This document shows, in pieces, positions 6,779-28,179 of a stretch of 33,259 bases of DNA. The number at the start of each line of letters is the position of its first letter. Position 1 is the stretch's first letter. Below the pieces are notes generated by a model that searched no databases, was not told where the DNA came from, and was given only the letters and a program-made list of their open reading frames with translations. Position numbers and translations under genes: made by a program. This DNA is from Bacteroidota bacterium (GTDB lineage Bacteria > Bacteroidota > Bacteroidia > Bacteroidales > CAYTAU01): contig JBDRPR010000197.1 of assembly GCA_043826845.1 (NCBI GenBank), positions 1-33,259 on the forward strand, read 5' to 3'.

Positions 6779-6842
6779 CTATCCATTGCCTATTTTTGAG
6801 TCAGACATATTGCGTACAATAAAAGGATGGTGAATAAAATTA

Positions 6843-6850
6843 TATATTTG
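6843..6850 (+). promoter_or_regulatory. Candidate -7 promoter box (TATATTTG) for ccsBA
   Basis: Exact TAnnTTTG match, 35 nt upstream of the ATG at 6885. The same TATATTTG octamer recurs at 9032 and 17768. Confidence 0.4.
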
Positions 6851-6884
6851 CAGAAGTAAGTTGATACATTCAATAAAGTTAAAA

Positions 6885-9295: not shown

Positions 9296-11353
9296 ATGGT
9301 TACCGAACAACTTATTAATCCAAAAAGCATTGTTGTAATTGGGGGATCCAACACGGTTTCCAAACCGGGTGGCAAAGTCCTGTTCAATTTGAAAGATGGC
9401 CACTTTAAGGGGAACCTATATGTAGTTAATCCGAAAGAACCCGAAGTGCAAGGATTAAAAGCATTTGCAGATATCCGTGAACTACCTGAAGTTGATCTCG
9501 CGATATTGGCAATCGCAGCAAAATATTGTATAGAAACCGTTGAGGTTCTTGTAAAACAAAAAGGAACAAAAGCTTTCATCATTTTGTCAGCCGGTTTTAG
9601 CGAAGAAAATGAAGAAGGTGCTAAAATAGAAAAGCAAATTGTTGAGATTATTAATTCTGTCAATGGTTCCTTGATTGGCCCTAATTGTATAGGTTTCCTG
9701 AATCCCAATTATAGCGGTATTTTTACCACACCTATACCTAAACTTGATCCGATGGGATGTGATTTTATTTCCGGTTCAGGTGCTACTGCTGTATTTATTA
9801 TGGAATCAGGTATTCCCAAGGGTTTGACATTTTCAAGTGTTTATTCTGTTGGAAATTCGGCACAAATGGGAGTTGAGGAAGTCTTGAAATACATGGATGA
9901 GAGCTTTGATCCTGCCCGCAGTTCAAAAGTAAAATTACTGTATGTGGAAAATGTAAAAGACCCTGTCATGCTTTTAAAACATGCTTCTTCATTGATTCGC
10001 AAAGGTTGCCGAATTGCAGCAATAAAGTCCGGCTCATCAGAAGCCGGTAGCCGTGCTGCTTCATCGCACACAGGAGCACTGGCCTCCCCCGATGTGGCAG
10101 TTGACGCTTTATTCCGTAAAGCAGGAATTGTAAGATGTTACACAAGAGACGAACTTACAACTGTGGCTTCGGTATTTATGCATAAAGAACTTAAAGGAAA
10201 AAATATTGCAATTATTACTCATGCAGGCGGACCAGCAGTTATGCTTACCGATGCTTTGTCGAACGGCGGACTTGATGTCCCTCACATCGAAGGACCAAAA
10301 GCAAAAGAACTTCTTGAAAATTTATTTCCCGGATCTTCTGTAGCAAATCCTATAGATTTTCTTGCTACCGGAACTGCAGAGCAATTAGGAAAGATCATTG
10401 ATTCATGTGAAAAGGATTTTGATAACATCAATGCGATGATAGTGATATTTGGAAGTCCTGGATTATTTGATGTTTATGATGTTTACAGACTACTTGACGA
10501 AAAAATGAAAACCTGTAGAAAACCTGTTTTCCCTGTATTGCCATCAATTATTAATGCTGAAAAAGAAATTGCAGATTTTCTTTCAAAAGGAAGAATAAAC
10601 TTTCCTGAAGAAGGTTCGTTAGGTAATGCTTTGACAAAAATATTTTATACATCAAAACCTGCTCCTGAAAAAATTGAATTACCAGAAATAGATACAGACA
10701 GGATTCGTAGTGTGATAAACAATTCTCAGAATGGATATCTGTCGCCTGATGCTGTTCAGATATTGCTTGATTCAGCAGGGATACCAAGGGCAGGAGAGGC
10801 TGTTGTTAATACAAAGGACGATGCATTGAAAGTTGCAGAAAAATTAGGATACCCTGTTGTAATGAAAGTGGTTGGGCCTGTTCATAAATCAGATGTTGGA
10901 GGAGTTGTTCTTGATGTTAAAGACGCTTCTACAGTTGGAAATGAATTCGATAGGATGATTAAAATAAAAGATACAACTGCAATCCTTATTCAGCCAATGC
11001 TTTCCGGTATTGAATTATTTGCTGGTGCAAAAAAAGATGAAAAATTTGGACATATGGTACTTTGTGGGTTAGGCGGGATATTTATAGAAGTTCTGAAAGA
11101 TGTGAATTCAGGCCTTGCTCCGCTCACAAAGGATGAAGCTTTAAAGATGATACGTTCCTTAAAAAGTTATGGTATCATTAAAGGAGCCAGAGGAAAGGAA
11201 GGTGTAAACGAAGAAATATTTACTGATATTGTTTTTCGTTTATCTGCACTTGTTACAGTTGCTCCCGAAATATTTGAAATGGATTTGAATCCTTTGTTAG
11301 GGAAGAAAGATAAAGTTGTTGCCGTGGATGCAAGGATACGTATTGAAAAATAA
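9296..11353 (+). CDS. ADP-forming acyl-CoA synthetase (acetate--CoA ligase family, fused alpha/beta)
   Basis: CoA-binding N-terminus (NPKSIVVIGGSN), a phosphohistidine loop (SSHTGALAS) and a C-terminal ATP-grasp (GYPVVMKVVGPVHKSDVGGVVLDV). Confidence 0.85.
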   Translation: MVTEQLINPKSIVVIGGSNTVSKPGGKVLFNLKDGHFKGNLYVVNPKEPEVQGLKAFADIRELPEVDLAILAIAAKYCIETVEVLVKQKGTKAFIILSAGFSEENEEGAKIEKQIVEIINSVNGSLIGPNCIGFLNPNYSGIFTTPIPKLDPMGCDFISGSGATAVFIMESGIPKGLTFSSVYSVGNSAQMGVEEVLKYMDESFDPARSSKVKLLYVENVKDPVMLLKHASSLIRKGCRIAAIKSGSSEAGSRAASSHTGALASPDVAVDALFRKAGIVRCYTRDELTTVASVFMHKELKGKNIAIITHAGGPAVMLTDALSNGGLDVPHIEGPKAKELLENLFPGSSVANPIDFLATGTAEQLGKIIDSCEKDFDNINAMIVIFGSPGLFDVYDVYRLLDEKMKTCRKPVFPVLPSIINAEKEIADFLSKGRINFPEEGSLGNALTKIFYTSKPAPEKIELPEIDTDRIRSVINNSQNGYLSPDAVQILLDSAGIPRAGEAVVNTKDDALKVAEKLGYPVVMKVVGPVHKSDVGGVVLDVKDASTVGNEFDRMIKIKDTTAILIQPMLSGIELFAGAKKDEKFGHMVLCGLGGIFIEVLKDVNSGLAPLTKDEALKMIRSLKSYGIIKGARGKEGVNEEIFTDIVFRLSALVTVAPEIFEMDLNPLLGKKDKVVAVDARIRIEK

Positions 11354-11381
11354 AATAAGTTAAACCACAAACAATATTACT

Positions 11382-13889
11382 ATGGCACGTTTTAATGAGA
11401 TTGTAGAATCAATACCAGGTAGTAAATATATTTTACAGGGCAACGAGGCTTTTGCACTTGGAGTTATTCATGCAGGTTACCATGCTGCCGATGGATATCC
11501 TGGAACGCCTAGTACTGAGGTAATTGATAAATCTTTAAAATATGTTCAGGATAAAATTACAGTTGGCTGGTCAGTTAATGAAGCTGTTGCTGTGGGTGTT
11601 GCAATTGGACATTCTATTGCAGGTTCTGATACAGTGGTTACAATGAAGATTCCCGGCGTTTTCCAGGCAGGCGATCCTATTACTACTTCTGCTTTTTACA
11701 CAGCAGACGCAGGAGCATTGGTTATTTATGCAGCAACAGACTATATTCCCTCAAGTACTCAGCATGTTATTGATTCAAGATATTTTTTCAGTTCTTCACG
11801 AATACCTGTAATTGAACCAAGAAATCATCAGGAAATGTACGAAACAGCATGGATTGCTGCCGATATAAGCAGACAATTCAAAACTCCGGTAGTCATTCTA
11901 GCTTCAGGAATTTTAGCACATTCAGAAGGTCTTGTAATTACAAAAGAACCCAGAAAAATTGAACGACGCCCACTCCCTGAAAAACTTCATGCATGGATGT
12001 TGATGCCGGGAATTGCCCGTCAGAATTATAATAAAGCAACACAGGAACGTATTCCTCAAATTAGTGAATGGCTCGAAGATTCACATCTTATTTCCGAAGA
12101 AGAAGGAAGTGAAGACTGGGGCATTATCCTTTGTGGAGAAAGTGATATTATTGCAAGGGAGGCATTAAAAAACATTAAGAAAAAACCTTCTATACTTTCT
12201 CTTGGAATGACTTACCCATTACCAAAAGATAGAATTATAAAATTTGCTACAGGCATTAAAGGAAAAATATTCGTTATTGAAGATGGAGATCGATATCTCG
12301 AAAATCAAATCCGGCTTTTATCTATCCCTGTTATTGGCAAAGTAGAAAACAGCATTATTACTGACTGGACACCGGAAATGATCATCGAACAATTATCAAA
12401 ACATATTGATGTAAATTATAAAGTAAAAAAACAGGAAATTAATATTAAATCTGTCACCAGACCTCCATCTATTTGCCCCGGATGTCCTTACAGAGCATTT
12501 GCATTATCTGTAGATAAATTAAAAAAGAAGAAGAAAATTTATGCAGCATTTGGAGACATTGGATGCTCGACACTTTTATTCTTCCTTAACTCTTTAGATA
12601 CCGTTTGTTGTATGGGCGCTTCTGATTCCCTGCGACAGGGTTTTGTATTATCAAGGCCGGAATATGCTTCTAAAACCATTAGTATTATTGGTGATTCATG
12701 CGAATGCCATACAGGTCTTGATTCGACAAGAAATGCCATTTTCAGGCATACTCCTGGTATCAAAGTGATTCTTGACAATTCAATTACTGCGATGACAGGT
12801 GGACAACCTGCTCCAACCAGTAAAGTGAACCTGGCTGGTATTCCCAATATTTTTAATCTAAAACGTGCTGTTGAAGCAGAAGGTGGAAGAATGGTAGTTG
12901 TGGATTCATATAACTTAAAAGAAGTTGAAAATGCTCTTGTTGAATCTTTGGAAGAGGCTGAAAAAGGAATATTTACAACAATGATTCTGGAAGGTCAGTG
13001 CATTCAGGAGGTTGAAAATATAAAGAAAATCCGAAAAATTTCCCGTAATTATGATCTTTGTAAAAGATGTATGCGCTGCAATGTTTGTCCTGGGATTGAA
13101 TTTGATGCCGAAAAAAAACCAAACTTTACAAATCTTTGTACATTTTGCGGTGGAAGTACTCCAGTGTGTATGCAGCGTTGCCCTTTTGATGCAATAATCT
13201 ATGACGAGAATGCTACTGAAAAAATAAGTCCACCTACATTTGAAAAAGTCGGAGAAATAGAAATTCCGGTTACGGAAAAAGAAAAGTTGCCTGAATCACT
13301 AAGATTAGCAATAAGGGGTATTGGCGGACAAGGAAATTTATTCTTTGGTAAAGTTCTTTCAGAAGTTGTTTTAAGAACACCGTACGCAGAATCAAATATT
13401 GTAAAGGGCGATACTCATGGAATGGCTCAACTTGGCGGACCTGTCATTTCAACATTCAGTTGCGGTACTGTTTATTCTCCGGTATTGGCACCAGGTTCAG
13501 CAGATGTATTAATTGTAATGGAAGTTAGCGAAGTACTTCGCCCGGGATTCCTCGAACTTTTAAAACCAGACGGGACTATACTGTTCAATAATTTTTCGGT
13601 ATTACCAGTAGCGATAAAAAGGGAAGATTATCCCGATACAAATAATATTTTCGATGCGTTAAAAGAATATAGTCTGATCAAAATTGATGCAAACAAAATT
13701 GCTTACGGACTTGGTGATGTAAACGGGAAAACAGCGAATGTGGTTGTGCTTGGCTTGTTATCAACAATTGTTCCGTTCAACAGTATTCCGGAAAAAGTAT
13801 GGCTTAACGCATTGATGGCAATTTCACCGAATGATTTTATAAAAGCAACTAACAAATTGTCATTTGAGGCAGGCAGAAAACAGAATTAA
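11382..13889 (+). CDS. iorAB: Indolepyruvate/arylpyruvate:ferredoxin oxidoreductase, IorA-IorB fusion
   Basis: IorA-like N-terminus (GNEAFALGVIHAGYHAADGYPGTPSTEV). TPP-type motifs (GDIGCSTL, GDSCECHTGLDS). Two Cys clusters (CKRCMRCNVCPG, CTFCGGSTPVCMQRCPFD). The last ~190 aa (LAIRGIGGQGNLFFGKVLSE...GDTHGMAQLGGPV) look like IorB/gamma subunits, all in one uninterrupted ORF. Confidence 0.8.
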   Translation: MARFNEIVESIPGSKYILQGNEAFALGVIHAGYHAADGYPGTPSTEVIDKSLKYVQDKITVGWSVNEAVAVGVAIGHSIAGSDTVVTMKIPGVFQAGDPITTSAFYTADAGALVIYAATDYIPSSTQHVIDSRYFFSSSRIPVIEPRNHQEMYETAWIAADISRQFKTPVVILASGILAHSEGLVITKEPRKIERRPLPEKLHAWMLMPGIARQNYNKATQERIPQISEWLEDSHLISEEEGSEDWGIILCGESDIIAREALKNIKKKPSILSLGMTYPLPKDRIIKFATGIKGKIFVIEDGDRYLENQIRLLSIPVIGKVENSIITDWTPEMIIEQLSKHIDVNYKVKKQEINIKSVTRPPSICPGCPYRAFALSVDKLKKKKKIYAAFGDIGCSTLLFFLNSLDTVCCMGASDSLRQGFVLSRPEYASKTISIIGDSCECHTGLDSTRNAIFRHTPGIKVILDNSITAMTGGQPAPTSKVNLAGIPNIFNLKRAVEAEGGRMVVVDSYNLKEVENALVESLEEAEKGIFTTMILEGQCIQEVENIKKIRKISRNYDLCKRCMRCNVCPGIEFDAEKKPNFTNLCTFCGGSTPVCMQRCPFDAIIYDENATEKISPPTFEKVGEIEIPVTEKEKLPESLRLAIRGIGGQGNLFFGKVLSEVVLRTPYAESNIVKGDTHGMAQLGGPVISTFSCGTVYSPVLAPGSADVLIVMEVSEVLRPGFLELLKPDGTILFNNFSVLPVAIKREDYPDTNNIFDALKEYSLIKIDANKIAYGLGDVNGKTANVVVLGLLSTIVPFNSIPEKVWLNALMAISPNDFIKATNKLSFEAGRKQN

Positions 13890-13935
13890 TTATAAATTTT
13901 TTTTCATAAATATAATATTTGAAAAGTAAAAAATT

Positions 13936-15243
13936 ATGGAAACGCCAATTAAAAAAGAGTTTGTCGAACAGGCAATTAAAGAAAGTGGCTTGAAAGATGT
14001 AGGTCGTGCTTCGATCAGAGAATTGAAGTGGCTGATCAACAGGATAGAAAAATTAAGTGATACACTATTTATCAGAATGGAAATGGGTGTTCCCGGACTC
14101 CCTGCTCCAAGGATTGCTATTGAAGCAGAAAAAGCTGCATTGGATGCAGGCGTAGCATCCCTATATCCCGATCTTGACGGTTTACCTGCATTGAAAACAG
14201 AAGTTTCACGATTTGTAAAAAACTTTCTTAATGTTGATGTAACACCTCGCTCTTGTATTCCAACGGCCGGCAGTATCAATGCGGCATATGCTACATTGAT
14301 GGTGGCAGGAAGACGGGATGTAAAAAAGGATACTGTTCTGTTTATTGATCCGGGATTTCCTGTACATAAACAACTTGTTAAAATGATTGGTTTAAAACAG
14401 ACAGCTTTTGATGTATATAATTTCCGTGGCGAAAAACTGAGAGATAAATTAGAATCGATTCTTGAAAAAAGAAATATTTCTGTAATTTTATATTCCAATC
14501 CGAACAATCCTTCATGGATTTGTTTTAATGACGAAGAACTCGCTATAATAGCTGAACTTGCAGTGAAGTATGATGTTATTATTGCTGAAGATTTAGCTTA
14601 TTTTGCTATGGATTTCCGTAAAGATCTTTCGGTACCAGGTCAGCCACCATATCAACCTTCTATTGCGAAATTTATGGATAATTATGTGCTGCTCATTTCT
14701 GCATCCAAATCATTCAGCTATGCTGGACAACGTATTGCTATGATGGTAATTTCAGATAAATTATTCGAATCCAGTTATCCTGATCTCACACGTTTCTACT
14801 CATATCCCGATTTTGGGCATAGCATTGTTCACGGAACGGTATATACAACGACCGCAGGTGCATCACATTCTGCTCAATACGGCATTGCCGCCATGCTGAA
14901 AGCTGTTAATGACGGCACCTACAATTTTGTTGAAGCTATCAGCGAATATGGTGAAAGAGCAAAAATTCTGAAAAAAATGTTAATTAATAACGGATTTAAT
15001 ATTGTTTATGATAAAGACATTGATCAGCCGATTGGGGATGGTTTTTATTTTACGATTTCATATCCAGGGCTTTCAGGCGAGGATTTGCTCCTTGAATTAT
15101 TAGATTATGGAATAAGCGCCATATCTCTTTCAATTACCGGAAGCGAAAGAACTGAAGGTTTGCGTGCATGTGTGTCACTTATCCAACGAAATATGTTTGA
15201 AGAACTGGAGGACAGATTAAAAAAGTTCAATAAAAATCATTAA
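13936..15243 (+). CDS. PLP-dependent aminotransferase (class I/II)
   Basis: YSNPNNPSW and the Schiff-base lysine motif SASKSFSYAGQRIA. 435 aa. Confidence 0.85.
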   Translation: METPIKKEFVEQAIKESGLKDVGRASIRELKWLINRIEKLSDTLFIRMEMGVPGLPAPRIAIEAEKAALDAGVASLYPDLDGLPALKTEVSRFVKNFLNVDVTPRSCIPTAGSINAAYATLMVAGRRDVKKDTVLFIDPGFPVHKQLVKMIGLKQTAFDVYNFRGEKLRDKLESILEKRNISVILYSNPNNPSWICFNDEELAIIAELAVKYDVIIAEDLAYFAMDFRKDLSVPGQPPYQPSIAKFMDNYVLLISASKSFSYAGQRIAMMVISDKLFESSYPDLTRFYSYPDFGHSIVHGTVYTTTAGASHSAQYGIAAMLKAVNDGTYNFVEAISEYGERAKILKKMLINNGFNIVYDKDIDQPIGDGFYFTISYPGLSGEDLLLELLDYGISAISLSITGSERTEGLRACVSLIQRNMFEELEDRLKKFNKNH

Positions 15244-15262
15244 AAATATTTCCATAGCAAAA

Positions 15263-17728: not shown

Positions 17729-17767
17729 ACACATTTTTTAAGAAAGAATAATTTGTTATTATTTTTG

Positions 17768-17775
17768 TATATTTG
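17768..17775 (+). promoter_or_regulatory. Candidate internal -7 promoter box (TATATTTG) upstream of the AOR genes
   Basis: Exact TAnnTTTG match, 30 nt upstream of the ATG at 17805, in the 76-nt gap after the GRE gene. Confidence 0.35.
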
Positions 17776-17804
17776 ATACTTTAAATTTTTTAGAAAAAAT
17801 CTAT

Positions 17805-18344
17805 ATGCAACAAAATTCACAAGCAAAATTAATTGTCATTGATCCCGACAAATGTACAGGTTGCCATAGTTGCGAAATGGCTTGTTCTATTAGACATTTT
17901 AATGTATGCGGAACAAACTATTCGCGAATCAGGGTACATGAATTCCGGGATGTAAACACGTTTATTCCGGTGATGTGTCAGGCATGCGAAGATCCGATTT
18001 GCGTTAAAATATGCCCTGTAAATGCACGAATGAGGCTCGAAAGCGGTGCCATGGTCACTGATGATCAAAAGTGCATTGGATGTAAAGCGTGTATTCACGC
18101 ATGTCCTTTCGGAGCATCAGTTATGAATCCTGTTACAGGAAAAACCATGAGTTGTGATCTTTGTAATGATGATGAACTTGGTCCCTGGTGCGTAAAAGCA
18201 TGTACTATGCAAAAAGCGTTAAATTATATAAGAGCCAGTGATGCCGCTAAAGCACGAGGAAGAGAATGGGCAAAAAACCTGATGAAAGACTATAAAGTTC
18301 CGGGTACTGAAGAAGAGGATTTTGGATTTAGTTTTAATGTTTAA
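17805..18344 (+). CDS. Four-cluster [4Fe-4S] electron-transfer subunit (AorA-like / DmsB-type ferredoxin)
   Basis: Four Cys groups: CTGCHSCEMAC, CQACEDPICVKICP, CIGCKACIHACP and CDLC...WCVKAC. Confidence 0.8.
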   Translation: MQQNSQAKLIVIDPDKCTGCHSCEMACSIRHFNVCGTNYSRIRVHEFRDVNTFIPVMCQACEDPICVKICPVNARMRLESGAMVTDDQKCIGCKACIHACPFGASVMNPVTGKTMSCDLCNDDELGPWCVKACTMQKALNYIRASDAAKARGREWAKNLMKDYKVPGTEEEDFGFSFNV

Positions 18345-18396
18345 CCAATCAATTTCGCCTTCGATGACTTGGAGAAAAGCGAAACCCAAATATAAA

Positions 18397-18455
18397 AAAC
18401 AACAACCATTATGTTTAAAAATAAACCACAAATAAAATAGTAAGGAGATACAATT
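18397..18455 (+). promoter_or_regulatory. Leader element copy A: (AAC)n tract, mini-uORF and AGGAGA SD upstream of the AOR gene
   Basis: aacaacaacc-attatgt...aaacca...aataaaat...aggaga-ta-caattATGA. The same ordered blocks occur at 21764-21811. Confidence 0.4.
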
Positions 18456-20441
18456 ATGAATGGCTGTACAGGACAAAGACTGCGAATAAATCTGACAAAT
18501 AAGACATACGAGATAGAAAAATTATCTGTAGAGTATTATAAAAAATGGATAGGCGGCAGAGGTATGAATTCAGAAGTAGTGTATCATGAAACAAAACAAG
18601 GTATGGATCCTTTCGATCCGCAAAATCCTCTTTGTTTTGGCTCAGGGCCCTTGGTGGGTTCATTTGCTCCGCTTTCAGGAAGAACAACTATCAGCACACG
18701 ATCACCGATGACATGTTCAAATATGGGAACTGATATTCACGGTCACGGTGATACCAACATGGGCGGTGGTTGGGGGCCTATGATGAAATATGCCGGTTAT
18801 GACCAGATTATTGTTAAAGGTAAATCAGAAAAACCTGTTTATGTTTTTGTTGACGATGGTAAAATTGAATTTCGTGATGCAAGCCACTTATGGGGAATTG
18901 CAACAAAAAAAGCTACCATGAAAATTCTTGAAGAGTTGGGAGATTCTGATATCCGCGTAGCGCTGATTGGGCCTGCCGGAGAAAAACTAGTCCGGTTTGC
19001 ATGCGTGATGAATTCTTTCAGTGCTTCCGGCGGAAGAACTGGTATGGGAGCTGTAATGGGTTCAAAAAATTTGAAAGCCATTGCTGTGAGAGGAACAAAT
19101 CCTATTAAAATAGCACATCCTGAAGAGTTTATGAAAGCTTCATGGACACTGCGCGATAAAATTCATGAATCTCCTTCGGCAATACGTAGGAGAGCAGAAG
19201 GATCGCTTGATCTTTTCGACGTAGGTAATGCCATTGGTATCAATGCACATAAAAATTGTTCCACAGGCTACATGAAAGATATTGAAACTTTATATGGTGG
19301 TATGGAATGGGCTAAAGAATTTCTTTTTAGAAGAAAAGCCTGTTGGTCGTGCCCGGTAGGATGCGGAAGATATACATATATCAAAGAAGGTAAATATGCG
19401 GGATTCAACTGCGGAGGTCCTGAAATGGAAAGTCTTTGTAACCTAGGACCAAGAATTGATTCTGTTGACATAGCTGGTGTTACAGTTATGTGTGGTATTG
19501 TTAACGAACTTGGAATGGACAGCGTTTCTGCCGGAGCTGCTTTATCATGGACAATGGAAGCTTTTGAGAAAGGTTATATTACTGAAAAGGAAACAGGGGG
19601 AATAAGGCTTGAATGGGGCGATGTTGATACTTCAATTAAAGTTCTTGATATGATAGCCAAACGTGAAGGCTTTGGAGATATTCTTGCGGAAGGAAACATT
19701 CGTGTTGCTGAAAAGTTAGGGGTTGGATTGGATATTGTTCCTCATTGCCGCGGACTGGAGCATATCAGCGTTGATCCTAGAATTGCTTTAGGATTCAGTC
19801 TTGGATATGCAATGTCCACCAGAGGTTCAGATCATCTTAAAAATTATTCCTGTCTTGAATTTCCTGGCTGTGCAAAAAGCCGTTCATATCAGGTTGATGA
19901 AGTTTTAAAACCAGAAACAGCAAAAAAATTCTGGGATAACTTTCCTTCGCAAATGACCAAGATTGATACCAAACCTGAACTATGCAACTGGTCTGAAAAA
20001 AATAAATGTATCGCTGATGCTGTTGGATGTTGTTGTCAGGCAATAGGTTCATGGGGTGGTGCTGGAACATGGAAAGAGGCATATGCTCCATTACTTCGTC
20101 TTGCCACAGGTTTTGATTTTACCGATGAAGAAATATTCAAATCTGCTGAAAGAATTATTAATATTGAAAGGGCACATTGGCTAAGGGACGGAAGTGCAGT
20201 TCAGGACGACATACATATTAATAGGTACTTTGACGAACCTGTTGCAGGCGGTCCTCATAAAGGATTGAAGCTTGACAGGAAAGAATGGGCCTGGGCACAA
20301 CAGGAATATTATTCACTTAAAGAATGGGACGAGGATGGTTTTATTACTCCGCAAAAAGCTACAGAATTAGATATTCCTGAAATTATACCTGACATGAAAA
20401 AAGGGAAAGAAATTTATATGAAATGGTTGGCAAAAAAATAG
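18456..20441 (+). CDS. aor: Tungsten/molybdopterin aldehyde:ferredoxin oxidoreductase family catalytic subunit (AorB-like)
   Basis: Typical AOR N-terminus (GQRLRINLTNKTYEIEKLSVEYYKKWIGGRGMN), a Cys-containing FeS region (CWSCPVGCGR) and 661 aa length. An AAGGAG SD lies 8 nt upstream. Confidence 0.85.
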   Translation: MNGCTGQRLRINLTNKTYEIEKLSVEYYKKWIGGRGMNSEVVYHETKQGMDPFDPQNPLCFGSGPLVGSFAPLSGRTTISTRSPMTCSNMGTDIHGHGDTNMGGGWGPMMKYAGYDQIIVKGKSEKPVYVFVDDGKIEFRDASHLWGIATKKATMKILEELGDSDIRVALIGPAGEKLVRFACVMNSFSASGGRTGMGAVMGSKNLKAIAVRGTNPIKIAHPEEFMKASWTLRDKIHESPSAIRRRAEGSLDLFDVGNAIGINAHKNCSTGYMKDIETLYGGMEWAKEFLFRRKACWSCPVGCGRYTYIKEGKYAGFNCGGPEMESLCNLGPRIDSVDIAGVTVMCGIVNELGMDSVSAGAALSWTMEAFEKGYITEKETGGIRLEWGDVDTSIKVLDMIAKREGFGDILAEGNIRVAEKLGVGLDIVPHCRGLEHISVDPRIALGFSLGYAMSTRGSDHLKNYSCLEFPGCAKSRSYQVDEVLKPETAKKFWDNFPSQMTKIDTKPELCNWSEKNKCIADAVGCCCQAIGSWGGAGTWKEAYAPLLRLATGFDFTDEEIFKSAERIINIERAHWLRDGSAVQDDIHINRYFDEPVAGGPHKGLKLDRKEWAWAQQEYYSLKEWDEDGFITPQKATELDIPEIIPDMKKGKEIYMKWLAKK

Positions 20442-20448
20442 TTCAACC

Positions 20449-21720
20449 ATGAAAATTGTTATTATTGGAAACGGAATCGCCGGCAATTATATTGCTTTTT
20501 CTCTGAGGCAATTCAATTATCCATGCGACATTACTATTATATCTAATGAAAAATTTCCTGAATACGATCCATGTTCTTTGCCGTATTTTATCGGAGGCGA
20601 AATTTCAAGAGATGCAATTTTTAAAAGACAAATAAGCGACTATAAAATAAATCAAATAAATCTGATTTCCGGCAACGGCGCTGTTTCAATTAACTCCATA
20701 ACTAAAACCATAATCCTTGAAAAAGGAGACATGATCGAATACGATAAACTTATACTTGCATACGGCGGAAAACTTTTTATTCCAAATATCGAAGGAATAG
20801 ATATAAAAGGTGTTTTTAGCTGCAAACAACTACACCATGCTGACAAACTTAGTGAATCTGATGGCAAAGTAGCTGTTGTTATTGGTTCCGGCGCAATTGG
20901 AATTGAGGTTGCGGAAGCTCTGAAAAGAAAAGGATATAATGTTAGTATCATCGAACTGCTTAGTTGGATCATACCTGCTATGTTCGACAAACCAGCCGCT
21001 GAAATACTTAAAAAAGCACTTAATAATTACGGGATAAATGTTTTTACAGGTGAAAAGGTAATCAGTATTGATGGCACTAATACCGTAAAGAGTGTCACAA
21101 CTGATAAACGCACTATATCGTGCGATACGGTTGTAGTTGCAACAGGTGTAGTAACTGATAAATCTCTTGCTGAATCAGCTGGAATATCTGTGGGAAGGGC
21201 AATTATTGTAAACAACAAAATGGAAACTAATATTAATGATATTTTTGCCTGCGGAGATTGTGCTGAAGCTTTTGATGCTTTCTCAGGAGAAAAATGCAAT
21301 TATCAGTTAAAACATAATGCTATAGAACAAGCTGAGATTATTGCACAGAATATTTCCGGTAAAGATCTTAATTATGTCGGTGCTTATCCCTTTGCAAGAG
21401 CACATTTTTTTAAAACTCATTCGTCATCCTTTGGGAAAACTGTGAGTTCTTTTAAAAACATGGACGACGTTGAAGTAATTGATAGAGAAGAAAATAATGA
21501 ATATCTCAGGGTGATTCTGAAATCCGGAAAAATTGTTGGAGCACAGGCAATAGGAAAATATGCTGATAACATGGGATTATTTTTAAGTGCAATGTGGCAG
21601 AAAAATGATATTCATGAAATAAAAAATAACTGGCAGAAAATTTTACAGATTGATTCCCCCTATCCCTGGACATACCGTAAATTAGGTAATTTACTGGGAT
21701 TCGGACAAAGTATTTCGTAA
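20449..21720 (+). CDS. FAD/NAD(P)-dependent pyridine nucleotide-disulfide oxidoreductase (AorC-like; Nox/CoADR-type with Cys42)
   Basis: MKIVIIGNGIAGNYIA Rossmann motif, a second dinucleotide fold VAVVIGSGAIGIEVAEAL, and YDPCSLPYFIGGEI with the Cys at residue 42, as in NADH oxidase/CoA-disulfide reductases. It starts 7 nt after the AOR gene. Confidence 0.75.
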   Translation: MKIVIIGNGIAGNYIAFSLRQFNYPCDITIISNEKFPEYDPCSLPYFIGGEISRDAIFKRQISDYKINQINLISGNGAVSINSITKTIILEKGDMIEYDKLILAYGGKLFIPNIEGIDIKGVFSCKQLHHADKLSESDGKVAVVIGSGAIGIEVAEALKRKGYNVSIIELLSWIIPAMFDKPAAEILKKALNNYGINVFTGEKVISIDGTNTVKSVTTDKRTISCDTVVVATGVVTDKSLAESAGISVGRAIIVNNKMETNINDIFACGDCAEAFDAFSGEKCNYQLKHNAIEQAEIIAQNISGKDLNYVGAYPFARAHFFKTHSSSFGKTVSSFKNMDDVEVIDREENNEYLRVILKSGKIVGAQAIGKYADNMGLFLSAMWQKNDIHEIKNNWQKILQIDSPYPWTYRKLGNLLGFGQSIS

Positions 21721-21763
21721 ATATTGAATTTTGTAAACAGAAATAAATAGTTAATATTAATAA

Positions 21764-21811
21764 TAACAACAAACAACCTATGTCAAACCAATAAAATCAG
21801 GAGAATCAATT
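21764..21811 (+). promoter_or_regulatory. Leader element copy B: (AAC)n tract, mini-uORF and AGGAGA SD upstream of the amidohydrolase-like gene
   Basis: aacaacaaacaacc-tatgt-c-aaacca-ataaaat-c-aggaga-at-caattATGA. The 3' 17 nt are 15/17 identical to copy A. Confidence 0.4.
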
Positions 21812-22867
21812 ATGAGCAAAGCTAGCGAAGAATGGGCAAAAAGACCTTATGGCAGAGTCATCACAGAAGAAGAAATGAAAAAACGTTCTCATCCTGCATG
21901 GCCATATATTTATTTTAACCCGGGTACACCCGTTGAACCTGAAAAGGTGGAAAGAATTCTGAAAGGTGTTATTGATGTCCATATTCATGGTGCACCACTT
22001 GGAGGCTGGCTTGCCGGCAGACCAACAATAGTTGAAACATGCATCGAAGCAAGCGAAGCAGGGATGAAAGCTCTTGTTTTCAAAGATCATAATACAATGG
22101 TGAATAACTGTGCTATTATTGTACAGGATTTTCTTGAAAGGATGGCAAAAGAAAAAGCCAAAGCCGGAATTGATTTTACACCAGTAGAAGTTTATGGTGG
22201 AATTACACTGAACGAGTCTGTTGGTGGAATGAATCTGAAAGCTGTTAAAACAGCTCTTGATTATGGAAGATGTAAAGAGATATGGTTGCCTTCACTTGAT
22301 GCAAAACATCAACGTCAGGCGATGGGTGCCCAAGGCGGAATATCTGTTACCTCAGGAGCCGACGAACTCACAAAGGAGATGATAGATATACTTGATCTGC
22401 TTGCTCAGTATAATAATAACTCAAAAGGCGAAAGAGTAGCTTTATCAACTTGTCATGTTTCAAATGAAGAAAAAGTTGCTGTTTTAAAATATGTGAAGAA
22501 AAAAAACATGGATGTGAAAATTCTGCTTGATCATGTAACTCAGGAAATGACTATTTTAAATCCAGATGAAGCAAAAGAAATGATAGACTTAGGCGGATAC
22601 CTCGAATTTGCTGAATGTTCATGTGTGCCTTGGGCTGGGATGCAGGACTGGATTATTGCCTTCGATTATTCTTTTGCTCTGATTAAAGAACTTATTAAAG
22701 AAAAAGGTCCTGAACAACTCGTTTTGATTACTGATGCAGGCCAACCAGGTAATAATCCTGTGCCAGGATGGAAAATGTTTATTAAAACATTATTAGCACA
22801 AGGAGTAAGTGAATCGGAAATTAATGTGATGGCAAAAGAAATACCGGCGAAGTTAATATATGGGTAA
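21812..22867 (+). CDS. Uncharacterised amidohydrolase/TIM-barrel metal-hydrolase-fold protein
   Basis: N-terminal HxH motif (VIDVHIHGAP), later His residues (CHVSNEE, LLDHVTQE) and a late Asp strand (LVLITDAGQPG), a pattern typical of the amidohydrolase superfamily. I did not recognise the specific family. Confidence 0.5.
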   Translation: MSKASEEWAKRPYGRVITEEEMKKRSHPAWPYIYFNPGTPVEPEKVERILKGVIDVHIHGAPLGGWLAGRPTIVETCIEASEAGMKALVFKDHNTMVNNCAIIVQDFLERMAKEKAKAGIDFTPVEVYGGITLNESVGGMNLKAVKTALDYGRCKEIWLPSLDAKHQRQAMGAQGGISVTSGADELTKEMIDILDLLAQYNNNSKGERVALSTCHVSNEEKVAVLKYVKKKNMDVKILLDHVTQEMTILNPDEAKEMIDLGGYLEFAECSCVPWAGMQDWIIAFDYSFALIKELIKEKGPEQLVLITDAGQPGNNPVPGWKMFIKTLLAQGVSESEINVMAKEIPAKLIYG

Positions 22868-23762
22868 TTCTGGTTTTATTACTGAAATTAAACGTTTCGC
22901 CACTCATGATGGACCGGGTATCAGAACTGCTGTTTTTTTAAAAGGCTGTCCGCTTGATTGTAAATGGTGTTCGAATCCTGAATCAAAGGCATTAAATCCC
23001 CAACTTTATTTTATTTCAAAACGGTGCAAAAATTTCGGTAATTGTATTAGCGTGTGTCCTGAAAAAATTATTAATCCTGATGTTAATAATAAAATAAACA
23101 GAGGTAAATGCACCAATTGTATGCTTTGTGCTGAAGAATGCATCAATGGTGCTTTTCAGATAGTCGGGAAAGAGTTTTCAGCAGATGAATTATTTAAAGA
23201 AATTGTAAAAGATGTACCTTTTTATGGTAGCGATGGTGGTTTGACATTAAGTGGAGGAGAGCCATTGTTTCAATTTGAATTTTCTCTTTCGATTTTAAAA
23301 AAATGCAAAGATGCTGGAATTTCAACAGTGGTAGATACTTCAGGCTACGCTAATTCAGAAATAGTAAAAGACATTATTAAATACACAGATTTGTTTCTAT
23401 ATGATATCAAACACATGGATTCTGAAAAACACATTACAGGAACAGGTGTGAATAATAAAAATATTTTAGAAAATGCAGCTGAAATTTCTTCAAAAACAAA
23501 TATCAGAATATCATTACCATTGATTCCAGGATTCAATGATGACAAAAAAAACATCGAAGAGACAGCAAGATTTGCAAATTCTTTAAAAATAAAATTTATT
23601 GATATTAATCCTTTTCATAATTTAGGAGCCGATAAATATAATTATCTTGGAATAGCAAATCCATCTCAATTATATGAACCAATAAAGAAAGAAGATATAA
23701 TTAGAATAAAAGAAATAATTGAAAAATTCGGTATTGCAATAACTATAGGCAGAATGATGTAG
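22860..23762 (+). CDS. Glycyl-radical enzyme activating protein (radical SAM, with auxiliary ferredoxin-like clusters)
   Basis: THDGPGIRTAVFLKGCPLDCKWCSNPES (CX3CX2C). Two extra clusters (CKNFGNCISVCP, CTNCMLCAEEC). SAM-binding GGEPL. The ATG overlaps the upstream stop by 8 nt. Confidence 0.9.
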   Translation: MGNSGFITEIKRFATHDGPGIRTAVFLKGCPLDCKWCSNPESKALNPQLYFISKRCKNFGNCISVCPEKIINPDVNNKINRGKCTNCMLCAEECINGAFQIVGKEFSADELFKEIVKDVPFYGSDGGLTLSGGEPLFQFEFSLSILKKCKDAGISTVVDTSGYANSEIVKDIIKYTDLFLYDIKHMDSEKHITGTGVNNKNILENAAEISSKTNIRISLPLIPGFNDDKKNIEETARFANSLKIKFIDINPFHNLGADKYNYLGIANPSQLYEPIKKEDIIRIKEIIEKFGIAITIGRMM

Positions 23763-23790
23763 TTTAATAAGAGTTATAAATTTATTTGCG

Positions 23791-24300
23791 ATGCAATTGC
23801 AATTAATACAAAGTAAGATTTATGAAGCAAGAGGGCAAAAAGTAATGCTTGATTTTGATCTTGCTGAATTATATGAAACTGAAACAAAAAGATTAAAAGA
23901 AGCTGTAAGGCGTAATATTGAACGCTTTCCTTCTGATTTTATGTTTGAACTTACAAGAGATGAATATAATTCTCTAAGGACGCAATTTGCGACCTTAGAA
24001 AAAGGCAGGAGTAAATACAGTAAATTCAATCCTTTTGCTTTTACTAAACAAGGTGTTGCTATGCTTGCAAGTGTTTTAAACAGCTTTAAAGCCATGCAGG
24101 TAAATATTTCAATCGTGCGTGCATTTGTTATGGTACGACAATATGCCCTTACTCATAAAGATTTAACAGAAAAATTAAAGAAACTGGAAGACAAGTACAA
24201 CAGGCAATTTTCCGATGTTTATGAAGCGCTGAATTATCTGCTCGAAAAAGACAAAATATTAATTGAACAAAAGCAACGTAGACCTATAGGTTATAAATGA
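23791..24300 (+). CDS. ORF6N-domain (KilA-N-related) DNA-binding protein
   Basis: IYEARGQKVMLDFDLAELYETETKRLKEAVRRNIERFPSDFMFELT...FAFTKQGVAMLASVL matches the ORF6N domain pattern common in Bacteroidota, as I recall it. Confidence 0.75.
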   Translation: MQLQLIQSKIYEARGQKVMLDFDLAELYETETKRLKEAVRRNIERFPSDFMFELTRDEYNSLRTQFATLEKGRSKYSKFNPFAFTKQGVAMLASVLNSFKAMQVNISIVRAFVMVRQYALTHKDLTEKLKKLEDKYNRQFSDVYEALNYLLEKDKILIEQKQRRPIGYK

Positions 24301-24412
24301 AAATTGTAAAATGTATAATATTATGAGACAAATACTTGATGCAAATTTTATTAATGTACATGCAAACGATAGAGACTTGAATAAAATATATCAATAACAA
24401 ATAATAAACTTT

Positions 24413-25690
24413 ATGGCAAATTTACAAACAGAATTTTGCGGATTGAAAATAAAAAATCCGATAGGGGTTACTTCCTGCGACTTTGGTGGTCATGAGCGAC
24501 TGCTCAGAAGATGTGCTGAACAAGGCGTTGGATGGATAATTGGAAAAACCGTACATAAAATTGACGGCCCCCACCGCTGGCCCCGGCCTTATTTTTATTC
24601 GCTCAGGAGATTTGGAAACGATCTTAAAGATGCATGGGTTTGCAGTCAGATGTTTCATAATATGCCTTATGAAAAATGGTTGAACGAAGAACTTCCAAAA
24701 TGTCTGAAAACCTGTGAGGAATTCGATATGCTCTATATAGGTTCCTGTTCGGGTATTGGCGCTGATCCGGAAACATGGATTCCTTTTCTGAAAGATATGG
24801 AAGCAGCCGGCGTGAAAATGGTAGAGCTTGATACAGGTGGTCCTCATGCAACATTTGGAGCTGTGGATGCACATAAAGACGTGGGTGCTCCTTTGGCAAT
24901 GGATCCAGAAACTGCTTACAAAGTAACTAAAGCCTGTGTTGATGCTGTGAAAATCCCTATCATGTTTAAAATGACTCCACAATGTGTGAATATGGCAGGT
25001 GTCGCTTTGGCAGTTGAAAAAGCAGGTGCTGCAGCCATTTCTGCAAACAATGCTTTTTATGGTTGCTGGATTGACCATGAAACAGGAAGCTTCTTTGGTG
25101 TCCCCTCATCAATGGGAGGATTGATAGGAAGGCCATGGCAATTATTTTCATTAGCTAAAGTGATGGAAATTACAGCAACAGTTAAAATCCCTGTTCTTGG
25201 CGGTGGTGGATCATATACCTATGATGATTGCGTTAGATATTTGATGGCCGGCAGCGGAATTGCAGGATTATGCTCATCAATATATTCCAGAGGTGTTGGT
25301 GTTTTAAAAGAATGTATTGATGGGTTGAACGAATTTATGGATAAAAAAGGATATAAATCGATAAATGATTTCAAGGGTTGTGTTGTTAAAGATTTTCAAT
25401 ATCTCAGAGAGTGGAAAAGAGAAGACCCTATGGCAGAACTAACACCGGTTGTACCAAAGTTTGACCAGACTAAATGTAATATGTGCGGAATCTGTGTAAC
25501 TGTATGCCCATATGGTGCACTGACCGGAGATAAAAAAACGCACAAAATTCCGGATTTAAAAAGAGAATATTGTTTCGGGTGCGGTTGGTGTGTGGGGCAT
25601 TGCAACAGGGATGCAATTCAATGTGTTAATGCTGAAACAGGTGAAGTGATTTGGGATGGTTACGGTACGATTAAAGATTGGGTAAAATAA
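24413..25690 (+). CDS. Dihydroorotate/dihydropyrimidine dehydrogenase (PreA)-like flavoprotein with a C-terminal 2x[4Fe-4S] domain
   Basis: FCGLKIKNPIGV start and IPVLGGGGSYTYDD phosphate-binding loop of DHOD/DPD TIM-barrels. C-terminal CNMCGICVTVCPYG and CFGCGWCVGHCNRD. Confidence 0.7.
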   Translation: MANLQTEFCGLKIKNPIGVTSCDFGGHERLLRRCAEQGVGWIIGKTVHKIDGPHRWPRPYFYSLRRFGNDLKDAWVCSQMFHNMPYEKWLNEELPKCLKTCEEFDMLYIGSCSGIGADPETWIPFLKDMEAAGVKMVELDTGGPHATFGAVDAHKDVGAPLAMDPETAYKVTKACVDAVKIPIMFKMTPQCVNMAGVALAVEKAGAAAISANNAFYGCWIDHETGSFFGVPSSMGGLIGRPWQLFSLAKVMEITATVKIPVLGGGGSYTYDDCVRYLMAGSGIAGLCSSIYSRGVGVLKECIDGLNEFMDKKGYKSINDFKGCVVKDFQYLREWKREDPMAELTPVVPKFDQTKCNMCGICVTVCPYGALTGDKKTHKIPDLKREYCFGCGWCVGHCNRDAIQCVNAETGEVIWDGYGTIKDWVK

Positions 25691-26168: not shown

Positions 26169-26244
26169 GATTATTAATATTTTAAATGAGTGATATATTT
26201 ATGTTACTAACAAAATCCGTTTGAAAGATAATATTAATAATTAG

Positions 26245-26736: not shown

Positions 26737-26741
26737 ATATA

Positions 26742-28121: not shown

Positions 28122-28179
28122 TTAATAATTGATTTAATGCTTGTAAAAATAATTAATAAAATATAAAGAAAAAGACATT

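Follow-up and report, generated by a model that had tools for sequence, protein, structure and literature searches.

What does a glycyl radical enzyme (GRE) do in an operon that opens with an amino-acid fermentation module and continues with a three-subunit aldehyde oxidoreductase (AOR)? The question is raised by a contig of 33,259 nucleotides from a Bacteroidota bacterium of the Bacteroidales (GenBank assembly GCA_043826845.1, contig JBDRPR010000197.1), called the window here over its full length, in which eleven co-directional open reading frames (ORFs) on the + strand fill positions 9296-25690 (Table 1). Judged from sequence, family, active-site signature and partner set of this GRE system are all undescribed, which suggests a decarboxylation pathway that works without oxygen and is itself undescribed. 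As to the reaction itself, our tentative answer, held at clearly less than even confidence, is that the GRE would be a radical decarboxylase at a 2-oxoacid hub, forming an aldehyde that the AOR oxidises.

Membership of the GRE superfamily is beyond question. Barrel and Gly domain are recognised by Pfam (PF02901, 540 bits; PF01228, 94 bits), the glycyl fingerprint RVxG[FWY]x6-8[FL]x4Qx2[IV]x2R as defined in PMC13232127 is complete (RVAGFTARFIDLGPDVQRQIIER at residue 794), the catalytic C464 aligns with C433 of B12-independent glycerol dehydratase (GDH) and C503 of 4-hydroxyphenylacetate decarboxylase (HPAD), and a cognate activase is encoded in the same operon. The AlphaFold2 (AF2) model (pLDDT 86.7) matches all solved PFL2-type GREs at a TM score of about 0.9 in Foldseek. 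We firmly predict a working GRE system, as activase, Gly797 fingerprint and Cys464 loop are each intact. Within the superfamily, the enzyme stays below every NCBIfam equivalog cut-off, including those of indoleacetate decarboxylase (IAD; 623 vs 1100 bits, in two stretches) and HPAD (464.5 vs 1150), as well as below the PFL2-3 subfamily model (560 bits, cut-off 678) and the pyruvate formate-lyase (PFL) model TIGR01255 (128 bits, cut-off 994). Its closest solved relative by PDB sequence search and Foldseek is GDH, at about 31% identity. Homologues are 56-88% identical, followed by an abrupt fall to about 35%, and the family is absent from a June-2026 review covering all characterised GREs, according to which whole GRE clades, including all archaeal ones, have no assigned function. 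The orphan status given to the enzyme in the initial annotation is upheld by these scores and by the absence from the review, and the GRE is best described as the predicted founding member of a sharply bounded new family. Its bacterial hosts comprise Bacteroidales, Desulfobacterota-type metagenome-assembled genomes (MAGs), Coatesbacteria, Pelotomaculum, Syntrophomonas, Thermacetogeniaceae, Eggerthellaceae and Clostridia; archaeal hosts are Nezhaarchaeota and Hecatellales, whose orthologues are 57-60% identical and keep all motifs. Peat, groundwater, digesters, hot springs, oil reservoirs and guts are the habitats represented. The operon is horizontally mobile, passing between bacterial phyla, and archaea have the GRE and its activase alone.

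Insights into the class of reaction come from the active site and from the position of the family in the GRE tree. In the alignment of 117 family members, the Cys loop (P-C462-G-C464-V-D466) is invariant, as are R191, R309 and G573-C574-R575. According to the June-2026 review, all GRE eliminases and isomerases (GDH, PD, CutC, HypD, IslA, HpsG, HplG, YbiW) keep a CxE glutamate, which hydrogen-bonds the substrate hydroxyl; the GRE of the window carries Asp466 in its place. Likewise, H164, H281/S282 and D447 of GDH align with R191, R309/G310 and A478. The IAD model gives 623 bits for the GRE, about 445 bits for eliminase-like GREs and 708-826 bits for a clade formed by loci L027-L030. The motifs RVAGF and GCRY are common to the family and HPAD-like sequences, and RVAGF and PxGR to the family and the L027 clade, whereas eliminase-like sequences show RVAGYS and G-x-x-H/L. 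In an unrooted neighbour-joining (NJ) tree, the family was recovered in 100% of replicates and, together with the L027 clade and the HPAD-like sequences, was split from the eliminase-like clades with 99.8% support. Since such a split leaves the position of the GRE unpolarised, the tree was rerun with PflB as outgroup, and among 500 bootstraps of this rooted NJ tree, which like the first took in no bona fide IAD, PhdB, AAD or BSS sequences, the GRE fell with the decarboxylase-like clades in 77% and was basal in 21%. We therefore dropped the first reading of the unrooted tree as grouping with decarboxylases: the family joins between two superclades, and the support shrinks from 99.8% to 77% on rooting. 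A grouping with eliminases was seen in 0/500 bootstraps of either tree. From these sequence comparisons we firmly conclude that the chemistry would not be 1,2-elimination, and the decarboxylase-type reaction put first in the initial annotation is favoured by model scores, motifs and trees.

The same comparisons separate the GRE from the known decarboxylases. Residues of HPAD were mapped through the HPAD homologue of L034, where six published HPAD positions fell on motif residues with a constant offset of 28. By this mapping, HPAD E637 (IAD L616) corresponds to Ile583, F405 (IAD F401) to Tyr369, E505 (IAD Glu502) to Asp466 and H536 to Pro480, with the neighbouring His481 varying between H and N; the HPAD ligand set of Glu505, Glu637 and His536, the latter two of which bind the p-hydroxyl, is thus not kept. 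The family-specific Arg309 lies at the position computed for HPAD Ser344, which we take to contact the substrate carboxylate. IAD residues were placed through this mapping rather than by direct alignment (Arg226 to Arg191, Phe401 to Tyr369, Leu616 to Ile583, Glu502 to Asp466 and, counted as C+14, His514 to Ala478); the first three are kept or replaced by similar residues, the last two are not. R191, the arginine of the PxGR motif, also aligns with the arginine of the E. coli PflB GRGR motif, presumably PFL Arg176, the anchor of the pyruvate carboxylate; because PflB has GRGR, the PxGR arginine is ancestral. In IAD, Arg226 stacks on the indole ring. The CxD of the GRE also differs from Cys482/Gln484 of PhdB, compared by the residues cited in the June-2026 review and not by alignment, and its PCGCVD has no adjacent Cys-Cys pair as in PflB ACCVS. 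No gene for the small HPAD subunit HpdC lies beside the GRE: the next gene is of the AorA type, and no other small ORF is conserved there. In summary, the GRE shares with HPAD/HpdB and IAD the PFL2-type fold, the Gly fingerprint, a cognate activase, the motifs RVAGF, GCRY and PxGR and, in some lineages, a transporter gene in the operon; it differs by its CxD, Ile583 for E637, Pro480/Ala478 for H536/H514, the extra Arg309 and the missing HpdC, and neither HPAD nor IAD systems include the DUF6282 protein, PreA-like protein or tungsten AOR that are its constant or frequent partners. With Glu637 replaced by Ile and Glu505 by Asp, the GRE therefore cannot be HpdB or IAD itself, and p-cresol, skatole and toluene, which had been put forward as specific products, find no support, the last in view of CxD against the cited PhdB residues. 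Sequence places the GRE as a deep, separate lineage on the decarboxylase side that would be neither HPAD nor IAD, neither eliminase nor PFL.

The searches also brought up other GREs. L034 (10001-12607), a Bacteroidales MAG, encodes a bona fide HPAD large subunit (1443 bits vs a cut-off of 1150), which implies a potential for p-cresol formation in environmental Bacteroidales as far as sequence can tell; by alignment, the motifs of L035 are identical. L027-L030 (GRE at 10001-12480) belong to Ignavibacteria, Brocadiaceae and Elusimicrobia and form an orphan clade, sister to HPAD-like sequences, whose loop reads GGCTE; their IAD-model scores stay below the cut-off, and beside the GRE only an activase was matched by tblastn of the window proteins. 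A separate orphan clade (L031, L044, L045, L053, L057, L064, L065, L076; GRE at about 10001-12400 in most) with 100% bootstrap support occurs in Dehalococcoidia and Desulfobacterota-type MAGs; its Cys loop reads GCLD, which shows that CxD originated repeatedly.

Which genes belong to the GRE was surveyed by tblastn of all window proteins against the family loci, by unbiased ORF clustering and on Pfam-annotated contigs. More than 25 independent loci, spread over at least six bacterial phyla, have the central operon genes together, with proteins that are 45-95% identical, so this linkage is not chance adjacency. Among loci with adequate coverage, the activase is found in 26 of 26, DUF6282 in 23 of 26 and the PreA-like gene in 22 of 25, compared with 13 of 26 for the tungsten AOR trio, 6 of 26 for the 2-oxoacid module and 5 of 26 for a molybdenum-enzyme trio. 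The conserved unit is GRE plus activase, joined in bacterial loci by DUF6282 and the PreA-like protein, with the amino-acid module and the AOR as optional additions. This corrects the initial annotation in two respects: DUF6282 and the PreA-like protein, treated there as passengers, are conserved partners of the GRE, and of the proposed unit of amino-acid module and AOR only the linkage of aminotransferase, IOR and acyl-CoA synthetase (ACS) holds, in 5/5 Bacteroidales loci, the module being lineage-specific and the AOR dispensable. Wherever both were recovered in bacteria, the activase (329 bits to TIGR02494, cut-off 174) and the PreA-like gene are direct neighbours or have one small ORF inserted between them, the activase always coming first and independently of where the GRE lies. 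A minimal operon of DUF6282, activase, PreA-like, GRE and a major facilitator superfamily (MFS) transporter with a divergent PucR regulator occurs in Firmicutes, including the cultured Enterocloster aldenensis, while the complete version with AOR is found in the likewise cultured Pelotomaculum schinkii, where a sigma54 regulator and a histidine kinase accompany it. The three loci without DUF6282 and PreA-like are all archaeal and consist of GRE and activase only, one of them inside a Liv-type ABC-transporter operon. In the archaeal L083, the neighbours of the GRE are riboflavin genes; archaeal Amidohydro_1 and RibD_C proteins were considered as replacements for DUF6282 and PreA-like and rejected, because RibD_C scores above the cut-off of the riboflavin-reductase equivalog for archaea and neither gene is present in two other archaeal loci. 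Literature searches returned no published description of this gene combination and, among the searchable papers, none mentioning DUF6282. Two published systems were set aside: the benzene 'Magic' cluster of Desulfobacterota/Pelotomaculum (PMC13101534) overlaps in taxa but has no GRE, AOR or DUF6282, and the reductive uric-acid pathway (PMC12507026), with a xanthine dehydrogenase (XDH) homologue, a flavin reductase and amidohydrolases, has no GRE and serves as an analogy only.

Both orphan partners look like enzymes. The DUF6282 family is small and sharply bounded (149 matches, 52-93% identity), and D55, H57, H59, K91, D92, C154, H215, H241 and D308 are invariant. Its AF2 model (pLDDT 91.6, eight strands in the predicted secondary structure) is a TIM barrel in which the predicted strands carry the amidohydrolase ligands, namely HxH on strand 1, His after strands 5 and 6 and Asp after strand 8. 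The spacing of these residues is, by the numbering that we take for the phosphotriesterase (PTE) ligands, PTE-like. Sequence searches against the PDB gave negligible matches only; the top Foldseek neighbours are PTE-like lactonases, PHP, PTER (an N-acetyltaurine amidohydrolase) and renal dipeptidase, at TM scores of about 0.5 and with a probability of 1.0 for the lactonases and PHP. In contrast to the PTE-like enzymes, with which it shares the TIM barrel at about 15% identity, DUF6282 has no conserved Lys or Glu on strand 4 and instead an invariant Cys154 and Lys91/Asp92; PF02126, the PTE family, is found in only some of its homologues. Taken together, the model points to metal-dependent hydrolysis, the bond being an ester, lactone or amide. 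The PreA-like family is equally bounded (110 matches at 45-95% identity, then a drop to 29%). With PydAc and E. coli PreA (PMC7332683) it has in common the FMN TIM barrel with two [4Fe-4S] clusters, no FAD/NADPH module and an amidohydrolase-fold neighbour gene. Yet it reaches only 156 bits against the PreA model (cut-off 335), is 29% identical to its nearest outside relatives, and the 'ELNLSCPH' of dihydropyrimidine dehydrogenase (DPD) is an invariant 'ELDTGGPH', which replaces Cys671 by Gly and Asn668 by Asp; Asn609 is not conserved either, and only the equivalent of Asn736 is kept. The protein is hence no true PreA, and pyrimidine or orotate catabolism was rejected for want of the catalytic Cys and Asn residues of DPD and dihydroorotate dehydrogenase (DHODH). 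FMN barrel and both ferredoxin motifs are retained, and many invariant residues surround the would-be substrate loop.

The AOR of the window is, as initially proposed, a predicted tungsten-type enzyme of the AorABC type, each subunit matching the corresponding chain of the Aromatoleum aromaticum AOR (8c0z): the FeS subunit has 8c0z_C as its best PDB match (3.8e-32), the FAD subunit matches 8c0z_E over its full length (2.4e-41), and the catalytic subunit matches 8c0z_A (1.4e-74) and, more closely, Pyrococcus furiosus AOR (1aor, 1.6e-110). It differs from AorABC in this last affinity and in residing in a GRE operon instead of a phenylalanine-catabolic context. The catalytic subunit is 68-91% identical in 13 other family loci, and in most AOR-bearing loci GRE, four-cluster FeS protein and AOR follow each other immediately. 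Half of the operons thus include, as a firm conclusion, an aldehyde-to-acid step immediately behind the GRE. In the nearest relatives of the window, five loci, the AOR trio is replaced by a second ACS (ACS2) and a FAD/2Fe-2S/Mo-cofactor trio that occupy the AOR slot between flanks 83-94% identical. The best-scoring models of this Mo enzyme are 4-hydroxybenzoyl-CoA reductase and XdhA, with aldehyde oxidoreductases scoring lower; it is plausible that the cassette is functionally equivalent to the AOR. We also observed ThiF-like genes and small ORFs of MoaD/ThiS size accompanying AOR-containing operons (L020 5230-5919 and neighbours) and, in P. schinkii L092 (9694-9930), a small ORF with ThiS and Ub-Mut7C Pfam matches between the activase and PreA-like genes; by sequence, these ThiF-like and ThiS-size genes may be AorD/E-like tungsten-cofactor maturation factors.

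Upstream of the GRE, the module of ACS, IorAB and aminotransferase is present in 5/5 Bacteroidales-type loci with upstream coverage (the window, L001, L086 and the contigs P0004 and P0007) and nowhere else. An ACS gene of the same architecture precedes IorAB, aminotransferase and GRE on P0004 and P0007, and in L086 an ORF at the contig edge upstream of IorAB clusters with the ACS family. IorAB is 89% and 82% identical to that of the window in L086 and L001, and the aminotransferase 83% and 73%. ACS1 matches acetate/4-hydroxybutyrate-CoA ligases best, all under the cut-off, and IorAB, present in the window as a fusion with the IorA-IorB domain architecture, falls short of the IOR equivalogs (IOR_alpha 373 bits vs 651; IOR_beta about 100 vs 206-237). 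Other lineages have other modules. In E. aldenensis L087, a canonical IOR (702 bits vs a cut-off of 651), two PaaK-type ligases and an ACT protein lie immediately upstream of the operon. In Sedimentibacter hydroxybenzoicus L088, DUF6282 (59% identity) stands first in an operon that lacks a GRE; the other products of this operon are a VOR-type 2-oxoacid:ferredoxin oxidoreductase, D-2-hydroxyacid dehydrogenase, phosphotransacylase (PTA), two acyl kinases and a tripartite ATP-independent periplasmic (TRAP) transporter, a set that resembles the HpdDEFG/PTA/kinase branch described for p-cresol formation. By analogy, this cluster reads as the same skeleton, in which the 2-hydroxyacid dehydrogenase would stand for the PreA-like protein and oxidoreductase, PTA and kinase for GRE and AOR.

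The transporters extend this pattern. The MFS protein beside the GRE is nearest to the L-lactate transporter SfMCT and to the oxalate/formate-antiporter (OFA) family, and six clustered loci encode, between AOR and DUF6282, a membrane protein of 196-209 aa that is distantly related to monocarboxylate channels of the AceTr/SatP type (4.5e-11, full length) and has a counterpart in P. schinkii; TRAP, GntP-like or Liv-type systems occur in other loci. From these transporter types it follows that substrate and product are organic anions, probably monocarboxylates. Overall, we can state with confidence that every lineage-specific addition (aminotransferase, IorAB/ACS, IOR/PaaK, VOR/PTA/kinase, 2-hydroxyacid dehydrogenase, MCT/OFA-type MFS, AceTr-like channel, TRAP transporters) handles 2-amino, 2-hydroxy or 2-oxo acids, acyl-CoAs or small monocarboxylates. 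Regulators vary between PucR-type (five Firmicutes/Actinobacteria loci), PAS histidine kinase and sigma54-dependent proteins. Further neighbours were observed in single lineages: i) AroM-family genes (PF07302) flank the operon in two Firmicutes loci (L013 7009-7680; L022 1980-2642), beside TRAP or GntP-like transporters, ii) an enoate-reductase-type gene combining old yellow enzyme (OYE) and Pyr_redox_2 domains adjoins the minimal operon in two others (L017 4480-6432; L084 2985-5045) and is perhaps a sign of an enoate as intermediate or of a side route, and iii) Ech/Hyc-type membrane hydrogenase genes lie directly downstream of the GRE in a Syntrophomonas MAG (L022 12895-17591), homologues of two of them being found about 3 kb past the GRE in an Eggerthellaceae MAG (L018 14807-18122).

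We adopt the model of 2-oxoacid decarboxylation to an aldehyde because it places every core enzyme and also the variant clusters. The hub metabolite would be a 2-oxoacid, probably arylpyruvate-like. In Bacteroidales only, the aminotransferase would supply it from an amino acid; hydrolysis by DUF6282 and dehydrogenation or reduction by the PreA-like protein would supply it from an imported ester, lactone, amide or 2-hydroxyacid precursor. The Cys464 thiyl radical would then decarboxylate the substrate, anchored by R191 and R309, to aldehyde and CO2, either in a Kolbe-type reaction as proposed for HPAD and IAD or by a PFL-like attack on the carbonyl. The AOR would turn the aldehyde into the carboxylate, passing electrons via its FeS and FAD subunits to NAD+, and the carboxylate would exit through the monocarboxylate transporters, while IorAB and ACS of the window would offer a parallel, ATP-yielding exit from the same 2-oxoacid. 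Possible, though we would call it doubtful, is the wider claim that this is the first GRE family to decarboxylate 2-oxoacids to aldehydes, a thiamine-independent counterpart of Ehrlich-type decarboxylases that is hard-wired in bacteria to a tungsten AOR and two orphan families and shared across at least six bacterial phyla and, as GRE plus activase, archaea.

Several points weigh against this model. We know of no GRE that decarboxylates 2-oxoacids, and thiamine pyrophosphate (TPP) enzymes already do so, which makes for a weak evolutionary rationale. The route has no ATP yield, yet it shares the window operon with IorAB and ACS. There is no AOR near the GRE in Firmicutes, Actinobacteria and archaeal loci, and the Mo enzyme is nearer to 4-hydroxybenzoyl-CoA reductase/XDH, so the cassette swap may not be like-for-like. 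The roles of DUF6282 and the PreA-like protein are drawn from gene context, the carboxylate contacts of PFL R176 and HPAD S344 are assumed on our part, and the 77% lineage placement stems from an NJ tree lacking bona fide IAD, PhdB, AAD and BSS. Finally, all characterised members of the related GRE lineage act on arylacetates (June-2026 review).

This last point leads to the alternative that survives best, the main idea of the initial annotation, which we judge only slightly less likely than the adopted model: a (hetero)arylacetate decarboxylase of new specificity. Here aminotransferase, IorAB and ACS would make an arylacetate-type acid plus ATP from an aromatic or heteroaromatic amino acid, the acid being imported via MFS, TRAP or ABC transporters in other lineages, the GRE would convert it to a methyl product by Kolbe-type decarboxylation, and the AOR would side-feed acid from aldehyde. 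The affinity of the GRE to the decarboxylase side (IAD as best model; RVAGF, GCRY and PxGR; 77% in the rooted tree) fits this alternative, as does the correspondence of IAD R226, L616 (HPAD E637) and F401 to R191, I583 and Y369, and IAD and HPAD clusters have only a transporter beside GRE and activase, like the archaeal loci and the minimal Firmicutes operon. It would also give the Bacteroidales operon a linear, ATP-yielding pathway with a precedent in the p-cresol cluster of C. scatologenes (PMC13285125), where HpdDEFG 2-oxoacid:ferredoxin oxidoreductase, PTA, kinase and HPAD couple a branch from 2-oxoacid via acyl-CoA to acid and ATP with a GRE in one locus. That cluster differs from the window in using VOR-type oxidoreductase, PTA and kinase instead of fused IorAB and ADP-forming ACS and another GRE family, and, as described, it has no AOR, DUF6282 or PreA-like gene. 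The IOR and PaaK genes of E. aldenensis and the nearness of the Mo enzyme to the aromatic-specific 4-hydroxybenzoyl-CoA reductase likewise suit an arylacetate. However, this reading leaves the AOR directly after the GRE unexplained in 13 loci without aminotransferase or IOR and assigns no role to the pair of partners that is conserved most widely, DUF6282 and PreA-like; neither HPAD Glu637 nor the CxE glutamate is conserved, an extra invariant R309 stands where HPAD has Ser, and AceTr-like and lactate-type transporters suggest small carboxylates.

A reductive ring-opening of an unsaturated lactam or lactone heterocycle, following the logic of nicotinate fermentation or of reductive pyrimidine or urate degradation, appears improbable to us. 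In such a pathway, the PreA-like protein would reduce a C=C bond conjugated to a carbonyl, DUF6282 would open the ring to an aldehyde acid, the AOR would oxidise the latter and the GRE would decarboxylate the product, so that all core enzymes are used in one linear order. The pairing of a DPD-like flavo-FeS protein with an amidohydrolase fold mirrors PydA/PydB and YgfK/SsnA, five loci have an XDH-family Mo enzyme, and PucR-type regulators accompany the operon in the five Firmicutes/Actinobacteria loci mentioned. But the PreA-like protein has lost Cys671 and Asn668 of DPD, the DUF6282 structure is nearer to PTE-like lactonases/PHP than to dihydropyrimidinases, at a TM score of only about 0.5, in Sedimentibacter the partners of DUF6282 are 2-hydroxyacid/2-oxoacid enzymes rather than an aldehyde dehydrogenase, both proteins are missing from the archaeal GRE loci, and no candidate heterocycle was identified.

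Still less probable is that the PreA-like protein and DUF6282 are helpers of the GRE rather than metabolic enzymes, for example an electron donor of the activase and a repair or by-product hydrolase. The strict neighbourhood of activase and PreA-like genes in bacteria, the loss of the DPD catalytic residues from a protein that keeps its FMN fold and both FeS motifs, and the similar size and sharp boundaries of the GRE, DUF6282 and PreA-like families would all agree with such a role; the archaeal orthologues manage with GRE and activase only while their motifs are intact, Sedimentibacter has DUF6282 without any GRE, the metal-ligand set of DUF6282 is complete and the PreA-like family has its invariant residues around the would-be substrate loop, and no other GRE family uses such helpers (June-2026 review).

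Two classical GRE reactions are very unlikely, to the same degree. A 1,2-eliminase (dehydratase/lyase) like GDH, CutC or IslA would make an aldehyde from a vicinal hydroxy compound for the AOR, in parallel to the aldehyde dehydrogenases of GRE microcompartments, and GDH is the best PDB sequence and Foldseek match; yet Foldseek does not discriminate among GRE classes, every GRE reaching a TM score of about 0.9, and the loss of the CxE glutamate, the substituted GDH residues and the 0/500 bootstraps described above speak against it. A PFL-like 2-oxoacid formate-lyase, with C462/C464 acting like PFL C418/C419, would yield acyl-CoA for ATP formation by ACS and formate for export by OFA or AceTr proteins. 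The invariant C462-G-C464, the alignment of R191 with the PflB GRGR arginine (PFL being alike also in its GRE fold and in the second Cys near the catalytic one), the OFA-family MFS, the AceTr-like channel and the hydrogenase genes downstream in L018 and L022 can be read in its favour, but there is no adjacent Cys-Cys pair, the PFL model gives 128 bits vs 994, the tree has PflB as a distant outgroup, the AOR finds no explanation and the core cluster contains no CoA-dependent enzyme. Hardly credible at all is that the eleven genes came together by accident or belong to several operons with no relation to each other: internal promoters would fit into the gaps of 76-112 nt, some lineages do without the ACS/IorAB/aminotransferase module and some without the AOR, and the ORF6N insertion shows that the locus tolerates unrelated DNA, but against this stand the synteny in more than 25 loci across phyla, the 5/5 Bacteroidales linkage, the co-directional genes with overlaps or short gaps and the missing terminator-like sites.

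Regarding the layout of the locus, the ORF listing of the window together with Pfam, NCBIfam and motif searches confirmed all eleven ORFs in number, direction, coordinates, spacing and identity (Table 1). The intergenic gaps measure 28, 46, 19, 76, 111, 7, 91, -8, 28 and 112 nt, and the operon is bounded by a 385-nt gap on the upstream side and a convergent gene on the downstream side. A terminator scan found no terminator-like site in any + strand intergenic gap of the operon. As a possible clue to the ligand, riboswitches and leader RNAs were sought in the window and five related loci, with no Rfam match at the gathering threshold, and a sigma-70 promoter scan (72 sites vs 65.9 expected) was uninformative, its model being probably unfit for a Bacteroidota host.

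Table 1. Genes of the GRE operon, with positions counted from the first nucleotide of the window
Gene product	Position	Strand	Domains and features
ADP-forming (NDP-forming) acyl-CoA synthetase, fused alpha/beta (ACS1)	9296..11353	+	CoA_binding_2 + Succ_CoA_lig + ATP-grasp_5
Fused IorA-IorB-type 2-oxoacid:ferredoxin oxidoreductase	11382..13889	+	POR_N + TPP_enzyme_C + POR
Class I/II PLP aminotransferase	13936..15243	+	Aminotran_1_2; 513 bits to PDB 3g0t ('putative aminotransferase')
Glycyl radical enzyme (GRE)	15263..17728	+	PFL-like + Gly_radical; Gly797 radical site
AorA-like four-[4Fe-4S] electron-transfer subunit, 179 aa	17805..18344	+	Fer4_11 and related domains; 17 Cys in four cluster motifs
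AorB-like catalytic subunit, tungstopterin AOR type (predicted)	18456..20441	+	AFOR_N + AFOR_C
AorC-like FAD/NAD(H) subunit	20449..21720	+	Pyr_redox_2; two GxGxxG motifs
DUF6282, predicted metal-dependent hydrolase, amidohydrolase-superfamily TIM barrel	21812..22867	+	PF19799
GRE-activating radical-SAM enzyme (activase, AE)	22860..23762	+	TIGR02494; CX3CX2C at residue 30 (CPLDCKWC) + ferredoxin-type motif
ORF6N-domain gene	23791..24300	+	PF10543
PreA-like DPD/DHODH-fold FMN protein, C-terminal 2x[4Fe-4S]	24413..25690	+	DHO_dh + Fer4; two ferredoxin motifs

One of the eleven genes does not belong to the pathway. ORF6N, counted as a cluster member at first, is found at the junction of activase and PreA-like genes only in the window and L086 (69% identity) and is absent from L001, L023 and all non-Bacteroidales loci; it is an inserted hitch-hiker. 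L086 has two ORF6N genes (1048-1596 and 16047-16508), one at this junction and one between ACS and IorAB, and contig P0007 carries a 23S_rRNA_IVP gene at the ACS-IorAB junction. Upstream of the operon, the window encodes a 1000-aa CotH-kinase-like protein with beta-helix, lamin-tail and type IX secretion system (T9SS) C-terminal sorting domains (31-3033), the last of which, like the closest relatives, fits a Bacteroidales host, followed by a block (3161-8911) of a divergent Crp/Fnr-type regulator, a Pyr_redox_2 protein, a 205-aa protein and DsrC/TusE-like, DsrE2-like and ResB/CcsA genes, which looks like a sulfur-relay cluster; the DsrC/TusE-like protein has a single C-terminal Cys (...TSCI). 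The DsrC/DsrE-like and ResB/CcsA genes had suggested a sulfonate lyase, an idea that was ruled out as they are not adjacent to the GRE in any relative. The convergent block on the - strand downstream (25794-33257) has no relation to the GRE operon; among its products are a TonB_C protein, a membrane protein with zinc ribbon and a 573-aa protein with DnaJ domain and WD40 propeller.

Concerning the wider meaning, the products of GRE decarboxylases, p-cresol, skatole and toluene among them, are volatile or act on the host, and each newly assigned GRE family has added a new anaerobic reaction. The embedded tungsten AOR would be a new pairing of radical and tungsten enzymology, and owing to the fixed link of the GRE with DUF6282 and the PreA-like protein, one solved substrate would annotate three families. 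Cultured carriers are available with E. aldenensis from the human gut and P. schinkii, besides S. hydroxybenzoicus with DUF6282 alone. The archaeal members matter in particular, as no archaeal PFL-like GRE has an assigned function according to the June-2026 review; if the enzyme is indeed a 2-oxoacid decarboxylase, this would be the first functional assignment for an archaeal PFL-like GRE.

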